Below, piece by piece: positions 1 to 41,698 of a stretch of 41,698 nt of DNA; the first letter of the stretch is position 1, and every line of letters starts with the position of its first letter. The notes under the pieces are model-generated. The model ran no database searches. It saw only the letters and a program-made list of their open reading frames with translations, and had not been told where the DNA came from. The position numbers were made by a program, and so were the translations under genes. The stretch comes from a virus: IMG/VR virus record IMGVR_UViG_3300045988_115336, positions 1 to 41,698 of that record. One strand, 5' to 3'.

Positions 1-55
1 AAACCATCCTAAATATATAAGAAAAACTGTAAAATGTGATTATTGTGGAAAAAAA
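1..55. repeat. Terminal overlap: bases 1-55 are identical to 41644-41698, indicating a circular or circularly permuted contig
   Basis: Direct comparison of both ends shows an exact 55/55 match. An ORF reads through the junction without a stop. Confidence 0.95.
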
Positions 56-520
56 ATAAAGATTAAAAATTACAAATTAGAAGATAATAAAAAACACTAT
101 TGTAGTAGAGAGTGCCAATATAGAGATTTTACAGGTAGGAAAAATACAAAAGAATATAAACATATGATGAGGGAAATAACACCAAGAGGAGAAAATAGTC
201 CACATTGGAAATTTGAAAAAACTGATGAAGAACGATTAATAGGAAGAGCTACACCTGAAGACCACGAATGGAGGGTAAGAGTTCTCGAAAGAGATAATTA
301 TACTTGTCAAGTTTGTGGTAAAAGAGGTGGGGATTTATGTGTTCATCATATTAATGGTTATCATTGGGATAAAGAACATAGACATGACATAAATAACGGA
401 ATTACTCTTTGTAAACATCACCATAAAGAATTTCATAAAATTTATGGAAATAAAAACAATACTAAAGAACAATTTGATGAATATATTAATAAAATACATG
501 TTAATACCGAGGTAAACTAA
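2..520 (+). CDS. Intron-encoded HNH endonuclease, C-terminal part (same ORF as 41417..41698; about 248 aa on the circle)
   Basis: The frame is open from base 2 and continuous with the ORF running off the window end. It has an HNH motif (CQVCG...HHINGY...NGITLC..HH) and resembles the 277-aa ORF at 5569-6402. Confidence 0.85.
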   Translation, partial: NHPKYIRKTVKCDYCGKKIKIKNYKLEDNKKHYCSRECQYRDFTGRKNTKEYKHMMREITPRGENSPHWKFEKTDEERLIGRATPEDHEWRVRVLERDNYTCQVCGKRGGDLCVHHINGYHWDKEHRHDINNGITLCKHHHKEFHKIYGNKNNTKEQFDEYINKIHVNTEVN

Positions 521-712
521 GAAGTTAAAAAGTCTTAGTCACCGTAACGCATAGGAATTGAACCTATGCTTTTTTATTGAAAAAAGTATAGAATAAAATA
601 TTCCCACGAGTGGTTAACACCTTAGCAAGTAAAGTTGAAGGTGAAAATATATGCTGAACTTATAGGAAACTATAAGAACTATAGGATAAAAAGCCTATAG
701 GATAACAAATTG

Positions 713-1421
713 AGAACTAACAGACGAAGCAGTATTATCAGGATATGGTAATCCTGTAGGTGAAACAAATAACCAAATAGCAAAATCAATAGCTTCTAAA
801 GTAGATAACGATGCAATAGATGTTTTATTTAATGCACAATTAATTTATGATGGCTCAGGCGGAATTATAAATTATGACAGAATAGTTGACGCAATAGATG
901 TATTTGATGAAGAATTAAATACAGAAAAAGCGATGTTTGTAAATCCCAAACAAGTTACACAATTAAGAAAAGATGCTAATTTTATATCTGCAGACAAATA
1001 TACTGGTCAAGTAGTTATGAATGGAGAAATAGGTAAAATAGCTAATTGCAGAATTGTAGCAACTAAAAAAGCTAAATTAGTGGATGAATGGTACTCTTTC
1101 TGCGAAAGTGGAACAAATAGTGCAGTAGAAGTAACATCTAGCAACTTAGCAACAATACAAGCTACATTGCCAAATGCAAAAGAAGGCGATTATGTATTAA
1201 AATCAACTACTGCAGTATACTTTAATCCAATTATAAAACTTAATAATGATGCTGAAACAGAAGAAGATACTGCTGCTTTAACTGTATACTTAAAAAGAGA
1301 TACAAATGTAGAAACAGATAGAGTATCTTTAGCAAGAAAAACTGATATATCTGCTGACAAACACTATACTGCAGTCTTATCAAATGCAGCTAAAGTTGTT
1401 TTAGCTAAATTTAAAAAATAA
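713..1421 (+). CDS. Major capsid protein, exon 3 (HK97-fold family)
   Basis: The frame is open from 714. It encodes ELTDEAVLSGYGNPVGE..., a conserved capsid motif, with no start codon or RBS of its own before Met at 933. Confidence 0.85.
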
Positions 1422-4152: not shown

Positions 4153-4938
4153 ATGAGAGAAATTTGGAAAAATATAAAAGGGTACGAAGGAAAATATATG
4201 GTAAGTACAGATGGAAGAGTGAAAAGTATCAATTATAAAAATTCAAGTAGCCCTAACATATTAAAACAAGGCTTAGATAAATATGGATATAAACAATTAA
4301 CTCTTTATTCAAATGGGAGTAAGAAAACATTTAAAGTACATAGACTAGTAGCAGAAACATTTTTAGAAAATCCTAAAAATTTACCTCAAATTAATCATAA
4401 AGATGAAAACAAACAAAATAACAAAGTAGAAAATTTAGAATTTTGCTCAGCTTCATACAATATAAATTATGGAACTAGAAATAAAAAAACATCGGAAAAG
4501 TTAAAAGTAATAAGAAAAACTACAAGCCCTGTAAGTGGAGAAAATAATCCTATGTATGGCAAGCATCATACAGATGAGACCAAAAGGAAAATAAGTGAAG
4601 CACGCAAGGGTAAATACGCAGGGAAAAACAACCCTATGTATGGCAAACATAGGAGTGATGAAGTTAAAGAAAAACTCAGTAAAGCAAATAAAGGCAAGAA
4701 ATTACCAAAAGAAACTAAAAAGAAAATAAGCGAAGCTAATAAAGGGGAAAAACATCCTCAAGCTAAAAAAGTTATCTGCATAACAACAGGAGAAATATTT
4801 AATTATATAAAAGAGGCAACACAAAAATATAATATAGATAATTCAAGTATTACAAAATGCTGTAAAGGGAAAAGAAAATCAAGTGGCAAACATCCTATAA
4901 CAGGTGAAAAACTTGAATGGGGTTATTATGTTGAATAA
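4153..4938 (+). CDS. Free-standing HNH homing endonuclease (NUMOD4-like N-terminus, HNH_3-like core, repeated NUMOD-type helices)
   Basis: WKNIKGYEGKYMVSTDGRV, HRLVAETF...INHKDENKQNN, and repeats of GxNNPMYGKH..E.K.K.S. It has an AGGAGG RBS. Confidence 0.8.
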   Translation: MREIWKNIKGYEGKYMVSTDGRVKSINYKNSSSPNILKQGLDKYGYKQLTLYSNGSKKTFKVHRLVAETFLENPKNLPQINHKDENKQNNKVENLEFCSASYNINYGTRNKKTSEKLKVIRKTTSPVSGENNPMYGKHHTDETKRKISEARKGKYAGKNNPMYGKHRSDEVKEKLSKANKGKKLPKETKKKISEANKGEKHPQAKKVICITTGEIFNYIKEATQKYNIDNSSITKCCKGKRKSSGKHPITGEKLEWGYYVE

Positions 4939-5368: not shown

Positions 5369-5568
5369 AAAAAAAGATTGGCACACTAAATAGAAATATT
5401 TAGAAAAAATAAGCGAGCAATATCGGTAAAACACGTAACTGATTATTAAAATATGATATAATATAGTTAGGGATAGTTAAGGAAGTCGCGAGCCTTAATG
5501 AAAAGAAAGTTATCCGAGCTTTCTTCCCTGTTGATTAATCGGATGGATACTATCGGAGGTGTTTAAAA

Positions 5569-6402
5569 ATGAATTATAAAATTTGTTCAAAATGTAAAGA
5601 ATTAAAACCTTTAGATGCTTTTGAAAAAAGTAATTCTTGTAAAGATGGGCATAGAGGAACTTGTAAACAATGTAGACAAGAACAAAAAAATAAAAAACAT
5701 CAATTACAGTGTGAAGTATGTGGGGAAAAATTTACAAGTTCTAGAAAAGAAGCTAAATATTGCAGTGAAAAATGCCAACATTTAGCACGTAGAAATAGAG
5801 TAAAAGTGAAATGTTCATATTGTGGGAAAGAGCTAGAAGTTATAAAGTCAAAAGCAGACAGTCAAGAATATTTTTATTGTAATCAACAATGTAGAACAGA
5901 ACATTTAAAAACAATAATGAAAGGTACAAATAATCCTAACTTCAACAAAGTAAAATATAATTGTGATGGATGCAATAAAGAAATTTATATAAATCCTTAT
6001 AAAATAAAATCTCAAAAACATATATTTTGTTCTGAGGAATGTTACATAAAAAATATAGGTAAATTTTACAAAGGTGAAAATAATTCTAATTGGAATAAAA
6101 ATCTAACCTCAGAAGAAAGAGAATTAAAAAGAAGATATCCTAAATATTATGAATGGAGAAACAAAGTGTATGAGAGAGATAATTACACTTGCCAAATTTG
6201 TGGAAGTAGTAAGAGTGGAACATTAATAGCGCATCATTTAAATGGATATAACTGGGATATAGAGCATAGGACAGATATTGATAATGGAATAACTTTATGT
6301 ACTAGATGCCATAATGAATTTCATAATAAATTTGGATGCGGGAATAATACAAAAGAACAATTTGAACAATTTTTAAATATTAAATTACAAGTGTCTTTAT
6401 AA
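5569..6402 (+). CDS. Intron-encoded HNH endonuclease with N-terminal Cys4 zinc-ribbon-like modules
   Basis: GGAGGTG RBS. Repeated CxxC...CxxxC modules and a C-terminal HNH motif (CQICG...HHLNGY...NGITLC..CH). Confidence 0.85.
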   Translation: MNYKICSKCKELKPLDAFEKSNSCKDGHRGTCKQCRQEQKNKKHQLQCEVCGEKFTSSRKEAKYCSEKCQHLARRNRVKVKCSYCGKELEVIKSKADSQEYFYCNQQCRTEHLKTIMKGTNNPNFNKVKYNCDGCNKEIYINPYKIKSQKHIFCSEECYIKNIGKFYKGENNSNWNKNLTSEERELKRRYPKYYEWRNKVYERDNYTCQICGSSKSGTLIAHHLNGYNWDIEHRTDIDNGITLCTRCHNEFHNKFGCGNNTKEQFEQFLNIKLQVSL

Positions 6403-6414
6403 GACACTTTTTTT
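6391..6414 (+). terminator. Terminator-like hairpin at the end of the intron ORF
   Basis: GTGTCTT tat AAGACAC followed by TTTTTTT, overlapping the HNH stop codon. Confidence 0.45.
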
Positions 6415-6645
6415 ATACAAATAATCAGATGTCAATACCGAGATAACTTTATAGATTGCGAAAGGCTATAAAGTATCGTAGAGCGTAGATAGTGAATAAA
6501 TATAATCTATCCAAGAGTGTTCGCCACCTTACCATTAAGTTGAAGGTGAAAATGTACGCCAAACTGGGTTTGAAATGACAAACCGATGAAAATGAGGGAA
6601 ACCTCCAGAGGTTAGGATAAAAAGCCTAACGATAATAACGATTTG

Positions 6646-6783: not shown

Positions 6784-7208
6784 AAAAAATATTGGTCGGT
6801 TACTTGGAAACAAGTAGCATAAAGCATCGAGGAAAAACGGGGAAGGTTAAACTTTGTTTAAAGATATCGTTACCCTTGAAAATACTAATTATATATCAAA
6901 TTAAGGAATTTTTAAACAAGCAAATTAATCCCGTGACAAACTAAGAAATTAAAAAATCTTAGTCGTTGTAGAGCGTAGGTATTGAACCTATGCTTTTTAT
7001 TTTTAAAAAGTGTAGAATATAATATACCCACGAGTCCTCGACACGATTATATATAGGATAATCTGAAAACCTAACGTAAAACGAGGGTGAAAAGGTACGC
7101 CAAACTAGGTATGAAATGACATACCGATGAGATAAGGAATTGCACAACTTATCAAATGAGGGAAACTTCTAGAGGTTGAGATAAAAAGCTCAACGTTAAT
7201 AACAAATG
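6784..7208 (+). mobile_element. Group-I-type intron TMP-i2 (425 nt, ORF-less)
   Basis: The 5' splice site follows U6783, and UGACU pairs with GGUCG at 6794-6798. The intron ends ...TAATAACAAATG. Joining the exons gives SDAVT|DILSAFG. Its core is homologous to TMP-i1 and MCP-i2. Confidence 0.8.
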
Positions 7209-31138: not shown

Positions 31139-31186
31139 TTCACTCTCTTTTCTTTTCCACAATTAAAGTTATATACCCAAATTAAG

Positions 31187-31487
31187 TAAAGCAAATAAAG
31201 GTAAACAGTTAACAGAAGAAACTAAAAAGAAAATAAGTAAAACACTTAAAGGCAAAATGACAGGAGAAAAAAATCCGATGTATGGTATGTCAGGGGAAAA
31301 ACATCCACGAGCTAGAAAAATTAAATGTATTGCAACTGGAGAGATATTTAATTATATAAGAGAAGCTGCGAAAAAATATAATATCGACAGCTCAAGTATA
31401 TCGGCATGTTGCAGAGGGAAACAAAAATCAGCTGGTAAGCATCCGATAACAGGCGAAAAGCTAGTATGGGAATATGCAGAAAAATAA
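31187..31487 (+). pseudogene. HNH homing endonuclease, 3' part (continuation of 29052-29419 once the IS and one TSD copy are removed)
   Basis: SKANKGKQLTEETKKKIS...CIATGEIFNYIREAAKKYNIDSSSISACCRGK parallels the C-terminus of 4153-4938. The restored ORF is 669 nt, in frame. Confidence 0.85.
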
Positions 31488-40734: not shown

Positions 40735-40894
40735 ATGTCAACAACAAAAATTGCAGATTTAATAAATCCAGAAGTAATGGCAGATATGATTTCAGCCAAA
40801 ATAGAAAAAAAATTAGTGGTTACACCATTTGCTAAAATAGATACTACATTAGTAGGGCAACCAGGAAATACTATAACAGTTCCACAATATGCGT
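40735..40894 (+). CDS. Major capsid protein, exon 1
   Basis: AGGAAGGTGA RBS. It encodes MSTTKIADLINPEVMADMI...GQPGNTITVPQYA, a conserved capsid N-terminus, and the frame hits TAA right after this point. Confidence 0.85.
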
Positions 40895-41172
40895 AAAAAT
40901 ATGCGCCTTTACATAGTGATATGTATTGCAAACCCTTTTAATTGCTGGAAACTCCTAAAGAGTTCATCTCACTTTAGGACAATCAGCAGCGAAGATTCAT
41001 TAAATATATATTTAATGAATAACGTTCAACGACTAGCCGAAAGGCGTACACCCAAGTGGGTGGAAATGGAGGGCAACTCAAGGAGTTGATGATATAGTCT
41101 AATCTATATAGTAATATATAGCAGTTCATAAGAGAACGATACAAGATTAACGACCTTGTATGAATGTAAATG
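40895..41172 (+). mobile_element. Group I intron MCP-i1 (278 nt, ORF-less)
   Basis: GCGU/GCGC forms P1 with a U.G pair. ACGACUA ... AUAGUC forms a P7-like pair. There are several hairpins, GNRA loops and a terminal G. Joining the exons gives PQYA|YIGDAVDVAEG. Confidence 0.85.
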
Positions 41173-41275
41173 ATATAGGAGATGCAGTAGATGTAGCAGA
41201 AGGTGTTGCAGCAGAAACAGTAAAATTAACTACTACTTCAACAACTGCTACAGTAAAAAAAGCTATGAAAGCGGT
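41173..41275 (+). CDS. Major capsid protein, exon 2
   Basis: It encodes (Y)IGDAVDVAEGVAAETVKLTTTSTTATVKKAMKAV. It has no start codon, and the frame is restored only by splicing on both sides. Confidence 0.8.
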
Positions 41276-41698
41276 AAATTAATTCTGCCGTCTTCTTTAG
41301 AAATAAAGAAGTAATAAATTAACCAAAATCGGTAAAGGCTAAATATTTTATTATTTATGAAATTGAATTAACGGACTAAGCACTCAATATGTTATAATAT
41401 TATTGAGGTGATTAAGTTGAAAAAAATATGTCAATGTTGTAATAAAGAGTATAATGCAAAACGAAGTTCTTCAAAATATTGTTCTAAAGAATGTCAAATA
41501 AAAGCTAGAACGAAAAAAGTTAAAGTACAATGTAGCTATTGTAAAAAAGAAATAGAACGTAAAGCTTGTCATATGAAATACGAAAAGCACTTCTGTAATA
41601 ATGAATGTAGAGGTAAATGGATGAGTGAAAATTTAGTAGCAGAAAACCATCCTAAATATATAAGAAAAACTGTAAAATGTGATTATTGTGGAAAAAAA
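41276..41698 (+). mobile_element. 5' portion of group-I-type intron MCP-i2 (continues at base 56 on the circle)
   Basis: The 5' splice site follows U41275, and GCGGU pairs with GCCGU at 41287-91. It contains the start of the HNH ORF. Confidence 0.8.
41417..41698 (+). CDS. Intron-encoded HNH endonuclease, N-terminal part (runs off the window; continues at 56..520)
   Basis: TTG start 6 nt after GAGGTG. MKKICQCCNKEY... has Cys4 modules homologous to 5569-6402. There is no stop codon before the window end. Confidence 0.8.
   Translation, partial: MKKICQCCNKEYNAKRSSSKYCSKECQIKARTKKVKVQCSYCKKEIERKACHMKYEKHFCNNECRGKWMSENLVAENHPKYIRKTVKCDYCGKK

Follow-up and report, generated by a model that had tools for sequence, protein, structure and literature searches.

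The major capsid gene in IMG/VR virus record IMGVR_UViG_3300045988_115336 raises the question of how a single protein can be made from it: its second coding segment stops after the residues KKAMKAV at position 41275, and the conserved continuation of the protein begins only at position 713, at the opposite end of the contig. We analyzed the whole stretch of 41,698 nt (positions 1 to 41,698 of the record), which we call the window. An earlier note on this DNA had proposed that the two segments are separated by a second capsid intron, MCP-i2, carrying an HNH endonuclease gene. Our analyses indicate that MCP-i2 is very probably a mobile, self-splicing group I intron, presumably of the IA type; it is 1,080 nt long and separates U41275 from A713 in the capsid gene.

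Bases 1-55 of the window are an exact duplicate of bases 41644-41698, and because of this 55-nt terminal duplication we read the genome as a circle of 41,643 bp that was opened inside the HNH gene of MCP-i2; the location of the intron across the contig ends is, therefore, only a consequence of the linearisation point. On the circle, the gap between exons 2 and 3, previously estimated at about 1,080 nt, is exactly of this size (368 nt in 41276-41643 plus 712 nt in 1-712), with exon 2 ending in GCGGT and exon 3 beginning with AGAACT. Joining the three capsid exons (Table 1) bore out the in-frame product that had been predicted, a coding sequence (CDS) of 972 nt for a protein of 323 aa, in which the codon at the MCP-i2 junction is GT+A (Val). 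The spliced protein matches Pfam Phage_capsid_4 and, in an alignment check that the earlier note had suggested, was gap-free at both junctions when compared with capsid proteins that have no interruption (MT835521, Streptococcus phage Javan226 and Enterococcus phage EC55P1).

Intron-less alleles were sought in viral contigs (designated here with L numbers) using a degenerate pattern for AMKAVELTDEA, and an uninterrupted capsid junction was found in at least 119 of them. Around the MCP-i2 site, four close relatives (L180, L169, L176, and L190) share 92-94% nucleotide identity with the window across 180 nt, with 100% amino acid identity of the protein in this region, and their junction sequence (...AAAGCAGT/AGAACTTACAG..., which in L180 reads GCAATGAAAGCAGT/AGAACTTACAGATGAAGCTGTGTTAAGT) is uninterrupted between T and A. 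Since exons 2 and 3 are contiguous in these relatives, MCP-i2 is a discrete and polymorphic insertion between T41275 and A713. A one-base ambiguity in its boundaries (A41276 or A713) was settled by the group I rule that a U precedes the 5′ splice site and a G ends the intron. Exon 3 starts with a cluster of silent differences between the window and L180, 7 within its first 40 nt (17.5%), vs. around 5% elsewhere, and the exon base G41273, which completes helix P1 in the window, is an A in the intron-less allele; both the clustering and this substitution would be consistent with co-conversion of exon sequence next to the insertion site.

The layout of the capsid locus in individual contigs, determined by BLAST of the separate exon and intron parts, was variable. 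The four close relatives have exon 1, MCP-i1 with an inserted open reading frame (ORF; insert of around 950 nt), exon 2, and exon 3; contigs L155 and L135 contain the three exons contiguously and neither capsid intron; L018 has both introns, the second with the HNH gene; and L117 also has both, although with a different ORF inside the second, as does L093, which is truncated within exon 1. The proposal that MCP-i1 and MCP-i2 split the capsid gene into three exons is substantiated by the contiguous exons of L155 and L135 and by the presence of both introns in L018. The locus constitutes a clean natural series of homing-endonuclease turnover: near-identical capsid genes lack introns altogether, contain the first one alone (and its ORF), or contain both, and intron 2 holds an HNH or a GIY-YIG gene within a 100% identical ribozyme. 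MCP-i1 itself, a canonical group I intron that Rfam detects, has no ORF in the window, and in the relatives lacking MCP-i2 (996-2227 in L180) it contains a 302-aa ORF with a treble-clef zinc finger (DUF4379/CapR), in which Pfam recognised no nuclease domain.

As described in the earlier note, the end of exon 2, GCGGU, is complementary to a GCCGU internal guide sequence, with a U·G pair at the splice site. This P1 helix belongs to the minimum-free-energy (MFE) fold (z = -4.0 for the region of P1 plus P2), and the guide sequence is directly 5′ of P2, as in other members of the family described below. Additionally, the position of the U41275·G41287 wobble at the 5′ splice site, characteristic of group I introns, is fixed independently by the intron-less alleles. 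At the other end, the intron finishes with G712 and the first bases of exon 3 can form helix P10, as expected for the 3′ end of a group I intron; by inspection, the same P10 arrangement occurs in the MissB1 locus and in the two introns of the window tape-measure gene, TMP-i1 and TMP-i2.

The remaining helices (Table 1) follow the topology P3[P4-P5, P6]P7-P7.1-P3′-P8-P7′, which is the group I pseudoknot, and J6/7 comes before the 5′ strand of P7. P7 has a bulged C and the pair G549-C654, which occupies the position predicted for the guanosine-binding pair. Folding of the single sequence recovered P7.1 with P7.1a (z = -3.6) and P8, P9, and P9.1 (z = -4.4), and a hairpin in the position of P2 is present in 60 of 70 family members, in most of them with a GNRA loop. 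P5, whose loop contains the endonuclease gene, is a putative pairing proposed by likeness to members without an ORF (GGC-6 nt-GCU). Extra helices between P7 and P3′ are a trait of subgroup IA, to which MCP-i2 may belong, and a covarying P7.1 with an optional P7.1a is located at this position; affiliation to subgroup IA1 is suggested solely by homologies chained through the literature (PMC2504315).

Table 1. Coordinates of the capsid gene, of MCP-i2 and its structural elements, and of related introns; positions are those of the window unless a contig is indicated.
Feature	Positions	Strand	Details
Capsid exon 1	40735-40894	+	
MCP-i1	40895-41172		Rfam RF00028, 112.8 bits
Capsid exon 2	41173-41275	+	103 nt; from gap-free protein alignment and intron-less contigs
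MCP-i2, 5′ part	41276-41698	+	41644-41698 repeats 1-55 (assembly duplication)
MCP-i2, 3′ part	1-712	+	omega-G is base 712
Capsid exon 3	713-1421	+	
P1	41271-41275 / 41287-41291	+	GCGGU (exon) / GCCGU (internal guide sequence); 5 bp; U41275·G41287 wobble
P10	41283-41286 / 713-716	+	UUCU / AGAA (first bases of exon 3); 4 bp; read from the sequence
P2	41292-41311	+	8-bp hairpin CUUCUUUA/UAAAGAAG, GAAA tetraloop; MFE fold
P3	41319-41324 / 612-617	+	UUAACC / GGUUAA; 6/6 pairs covary, 92.7% paired
J3/4	41325-41328	+	AAAA; AAAA in 91/99 family members
P4	41329-41334 / 505-510	+	UCGGUA / UACCGA; 96% paired, compensatory change at 4 pairs
P5 (putative)	41337-41339 / 500-502	+	GGC / GUU; weak; loop holds the endonuclease gene
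J5/4	between 500-502 and 505-510	+	AA, between the 3′ strands of P5 and P4
P6	511-513 / 541-543	+	GGU / ACC; 99.5% paired, 2/3 pairs covary
P6a	516-522 / 533-539	+	
P7	547-553 / 650-655	+	A(C)GCAUA / UAUGCU; bulged C548; 100% paired (66 sequences; also 112)
P7.1	554-558 / 600-604	+	GGAAU / AUUCC; 5/5 pairs covary, 99.1% paired
P7.1a	564-575 / 580-591	+	Hairpin inserted in P7.1; MFE
CACGAGU junction	605-611	+	Between P7.1 and P3′; near-invariant, partly owing to the search pattern itself
P8	618-623 / 638-643	+	CACCUU / AAGGUG; hairpin 618-643
J8/7	644-649	+	AAAAUA
P9	660-675	+	Hairpin; GAAA tetraloop here, loop varies among members
P9.1	679-700	+	Conserved loop AUAAAAAG; 6/6 pairs covary, 98.2% paired
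3′ tail	701-712	+	GAUAACAAAUUG; ends in omega-G; family consensus GATAAC(A)n..G
HNH ORF	41417-41643 + 1-520	+	747 nt, 248 aa; TTG start; stop UAA at 518-520, in P6a
Intron 2 with GIY-YIG/NUMOD gene	L117 4989-5811; L093 455-1277		Same capsid site
TMP-i1	~5372-6645		HNH ORF 5569-6402, 277 aa; P1 GUGCU/GGCAC; P10 GAUU/AGUC
TMP-i2	6785-7208		No ORF; P1 UGACU/GGUCG; P10 AAUAUU/GAUAUU

The window contains three paralogues of this intron family, MCP-i2, TMP-i1, and TMP-i2, of which the last two reside in the tape-measure gene and, likewise, were not detected by Rfam. A repeat of 80% identity (501-620 vs. 6925-7044) supports the homology of MCP-i2 and the tape-measure introns. Their 3′ ends had been considered nearly identical to that of MCP-i2, but they are similar rather than nearly identical (GATAACAAATTG vs. 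GATAATAACGATTTG and GTTAATAACAAATG); the 12-mer GATAACAAATTG is unique in the window and, allowing up to two mismatches, it was found 14 times vs. 11.5 expected, which is the chance level. Outside of the window, blastn comparisons showed that the 3′ half of MCP-i2 matches around 110 GenBank records from phages of Staphylococcus, Bacillus, Clostridioides, Streptococcus, and others, where the matches are located in tape-measure and terminase genes, among others; an exact pattern for the family retrieved at least 118 stretches of IMG/VR, with 106 distinct cores.

Covariation was evaluated in 66 distinct members, using fixed-length segments cut at sequence anchors, which were ungapped in MAFFT. 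The set includes the members with a nearby 5′ half plus two of the window copies, and was restricted in this way because the location of the 5′ half by motifs is unreliable in members containing ORFs (P3 only 3.46/6 paired); a few mislocated rows were deliberately kept, so avoiding selection on the result. The anchors fix some of the invariant columns, whereas the variable columns of the helices were not chosen for pairing. Likewise, the anchors were used instead of a MAFFT alignment of the three full-length introns from the window, which was uninformative because it is dominated by their ORFs. Pairing of the core reached 95.1% of the cells, vs. 72.8% in shuffled sets (none of 500 attained the observed value) and 34-45% when the partner strands were slid. 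Compensatory changes were found at 30 of the 39 core pairs (605 cells), extending over the P3-P9 core, and every pair of P3, P7.1, and P9.1 covaries. In a larger set, all of 112 sequences conform to the P7 pattern X(N)GCAUA/UAUGCY, in which the pair X-Y alternates between A-U and G-C without exception and an internal pair also switches from A-U to G-C in step. An automated, strict search for P1 was supportive, if incomplete, with matches in 25 of 60 family members vs. 4.2 expected; by eye, many of the members without a match have an ORF in the P1 loop. In many members, among them L033, L079, L081, and L121, the ORF reaches the guide sequence GCCGU, placing this candidate endonuclease gene in the loop of P1 and not in that of P5.

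The 248-aa ORF that wraps around the contig ends was correctly identified as an HNH endonuclease: it matches Pfam HNH_2 (24.9 bits, cut-off 21; residues 178-222) and PHROG 1271, "HNH endonuclease" (E = 3.4e-28), it contains the catalytic motif CVHHING...NNGITLCKHHHKEFH, and it is 43% identical to the HNH protein of TMP-i1. A GAGGUG sequence (41405-41410) is found six bases before its TTG start codon. The gene occupies the P5 loop and, in agreement with the overlap with the ribozyme core that the earlier note had described, its final codons (..NTEVN*) are encoded by P5′, P4′, P6, and P6a, with the last 21 nt of the ORF lying within conserved helices of the ribozyme. The same ribozyme is nevertheless found in members without an ORF and in a variant with a GIY-YIG gene, so that the endonuclease gene, which lies in a peripheral loop, is dispensable for the fold. 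Contigs L117 and L093 have this variant; their ribozyme matches that of the window exactly in its first 58 nt and last 211 nt, while the window segment from 41334 to 501 is replaced by a GIY-YIG/NUMOD gene in the P5 loop, which is a clean cassette swap. As a separate observation, the unrelated GIY-YIG ORF from the Javan355 intron (1292-2032 in L006) also ends in TEVN*; the two proteins share these C-terminal residues because both ORFs read through P4′ and P6 and stop at the same UAA in P6a.

Several observations weigh against MCP-i2 being a group I intron that splices itself. When the Rfam model RF00028 was searched against the ends of the window, the cmsearch check proposed in the earlier note, only MCP-i1 and a tRNA were found, and MCP-i2 was unmatched both at the gathering threshold and at a permissive E-value. 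The model did not match the contiguous copy of MCP-i2 in L018, the ORF-less TMP-i2, or the homologous loci of MissB1, Javan355, 6ec, phiCD211, and BE02 either. P7 (GCAUA/UAUGC) and J8/7 (AAAAUA) of the family depart from the canonical GACUA/UAGUC and AUGAUA; P5 is weak, with just 3 bp (GGC/GUU) closing a loop of around 1.1 kb; a terminator-like hairpin followed by a U-run (549-575) is found within this intron, although the interrupted late gene is essential; and a hairpin that would mask the ribosome-binding site of the endonuclease gene was not distinguishable from shuffles (z = -1.3).

The Rfam results can be evaluated through an intron from Lactobacillus delbrueckii phage JCL1032 (EU409559), where it interrupts a tape-measure gene annotated as a joined CDS. 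Blastn aligned it to positions 497-712 of the window (78% identity over 108 nt, E = 3e-11), and it is 62% identical to MCP-i2 over the intron with its ORF deleted. RF00028 does recognise the JCL1032 intron (59.4 bits, E = 1.5e-14) and orders it as P1, P2, P3, P4-P6, P7, insert, P3′, P8, J8/7-P7′, and P9, the layout of MCP-i2, with the unaligned insert at the position of P7.1. Both introns are in late structural genes and share, besides the helix order and the peripheral insert between P7 and P3′, the sequence CACGAGU, P8, P9 with GAAA, the loop of P9.1, and the GAUAAC...G tail. Conversely, JCL1032 has the canonical GACUA/UAGUC and AUGAUA motifs, a different host gene and guide sequence, and no endonuclease gene in the P5 loop. 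Introns from JCL1032 are cited as proven self-splicing (Riipinen and Alatossava, 2004, as reference 64 of PMC6669764). RF00028 probably misses the family because its P7 and J8/7 differ from the canonical motifs of JCL1032, and we read this failure as limited sensitivity of the model and not as non-membership. The candidate conclusion from the Rfam negatives, that MCP-i2 is not a group I intron, was discarded on the covariation and the match to JCL1032; the negative search taken by itself would have been misleading, and the interpretation given in the earlier note is upheld by P1 with its U·G pair, P10, P2 to P9, the omega-G, the covariation, and the RF00028-positive homologue. Pipelines based on Rfam will miss the whole family, which is very common in phage contigs.

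The non-canonical P7 and J8/7, the lack of an Rfam match, the weak P5 broken by a loop of around 1.1 kb, and the internal terminator-like hairpin could also be accommodated by a group I-derived element that self-splices inefficiently, which would need help from a protein, either a host factor or one with maturase-like activity, or would be spliced only in part. We consider this very unlikely, in view of the requirement for hundreds of copies of an essential capsid protein, the 100% identity of the intron in independent contigs, the purifying selection on every core helix in the family, and the preservation of the same core in members without an ORF. Far less probable still is that a free-standing HNH cassette splits the gene and that fragments translated separately make up the capsid, without RNA splicing, even if the GenBank records of 6ec, Javan355, and BE02 annotate separate CDSs and an HNH gene. 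Exon 2 amounts to 34 codons, and exon 3 lacks a start codon in the vicinity of 713, with an in-frame ATG first occurring at 933; moreover, covarying group I helices are formed by around 330 nt of flanking non-coding sequence, the boundaries follow the U...G rule with P1 and P10, and copies without an ORF likewise interrupt genes (MissB1 and TMP-i2).

The location of MCP-i2 across the contig ends, together with a 55-nt terminal repeat that is typical of the k-mer overlap of assemblers, might indicate that the intron and HNH sequence was wrongly joined to the capsid exons at circularisation. This is hardly credible: L018, L117, and L093 are independent assemblies with the same junctions located internally, and MCP-i2 is not a junction artefact because L018 has the three exons and both introns contiguously, with MCP-i2 and its ORF uninterrupted and 100% identical to the window copy. 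Other candidates were rejected directly, namely a group II intron (for which MCP-i2 is too small and lacks GUGYG at its 5′ end), an intein (in-frame stops), and a translational bypass (1,080 nt is far too long).

As a group I intron, MCP-i2 would be removed from the late pre-mRNA in the usual two steps. Pairing of the guide sequence with the end of exon 2 would form P1 and place the U·G pair at the splice site, where a free guanosine bound at G549-C654 of P7 would attack after U41275; the freed exon 2 would then attack after G712, with P10 (UUCU/AGAA) holding exon 3. Splicing would restore ...KKAMKAV/ELTDEAV... and the 323-aa capsid protein. During mixed infections, capsid alleles lacking the intron are presumably cut or nicked by the HNH protein close to where MCP-i2 is inserted, for which the existence of such alleles and the silent substitutions clustered beside the site give indirect support; repair from the intron-bearing genome would copy the intron and nearby exon bases into the recipient, resulting in homing with co-conversion.

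The terminator-like sequence is an alternative hairpin at 549-569 that, with the U-run up to 575 (GCAUAGG..CCUAUGC then U6), scores as an intrinsic terminator and competes with P7 and P7.1. Clearer terminator-like hairpins occur in the same P7.1a insert of L052 and L087, and in 6ec and phiCDIF1296T the homologous match coincides with a feature annotated as "terminator". It is conceivable, but rather unlikely, that the family is an Rfam-invisible IA-type lineage with rewired P7 and J8/7 in which such a hairpin switches between folding of the catalytic core and termination of transcription past the endonuclease gene; the switch could be the P7.1a insert in several members or, as in MCP-i2, an alternative hairpin using one strand of P7.1a. 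If so, expression of a selfish gene would be coupled to the splicing of an essential late gene.

Introns comparable to MCP-i2 are known from other phages. Prophages of the Bacillus cereus group carry IA1 group I introns, TMP-IVS3a/b and term-IVS1, in tape-measure and terminase genes (Tourasse and Kolstø, 2008; PMC2504315); the JCL1032 intron is a BLAST relative of term-IVS1, which was described as homologous to the IA1 TMP-IVS3 introns, and homologous ribozymes with unrelated HNH and GIY-YIG genes were also described (PMC2504315). The latter exchange resembles that between the window and L117; the connection of these introns to MCP-i2 is a chain through JCL1032 only. Group I or group I-like introns occur in the capsid genes of lactococcal phage Tuc2009 and of mycobacteriophage LittleE, the latter with a homing endonuclease gene and shown to be spliced (PMC3706429). 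Both are unrelated phages, likened here by description, and the window capsid gene differs in its two introns and its 103-nt middle exon. The ribozymes of phage Twort are of the IA type and have peripheral helices placed between P7 and P3. As in the window phage, several group I introns are found in one gene and in several genes of Twort, with three in a single gene (Landthaler and Shub, 1999, as cited in PMC6669764). Twort represents, however, a different ribozyme lineage, and the canonical IA2-like core of the window is that of MCP-i1 and not of MCP-i2.

MCP-i2 is a selfish element of a kind that is ordinary in phages of Gram-positive bacteria. Mobile group I introns have already been described for capsid, tape-measure, and terminase genes of phages, as have multiple introns within one phage gene and swaps of endonuclease genes between homologous introns (PMC3706429, PMC2504315). 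The added value is modest and consists of a very common family that escapes Rfam and of one locus at which the states of intron and endonuclease form a complete natural series, leaving the current understanding of group I introns unchanged. In practice, the capsid gene of this phage and of its relatives is called as three fragments and an "HNH endonuclease" when its two introns go unrecognised, and the tape-measure or terminase genes of the relatives 6ec, Javan355, MissB1, and BE02 are annotated as split in GenBank.

In L008 (phiCD211), a family member at 1945-2223 in the tape-measure region is followed, around 23 nt later, by an Intron_gpI annotated by the depositors (2247-2512), which was not recovered with Rfam 15 at E <= 0.1; the two features may represent tandem introns separated by a tiny exon. 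Elsewhere in the window there is a gene for a 261-aa endonuclease with NUMOD4, HNH_3, and NUMOD3 domains (I-HmuI-like; 4153-4938), and a segment of around 300 nt (31179-31475), 77-80% identical to the 3′ part of this gene, looks like a gene remnant.

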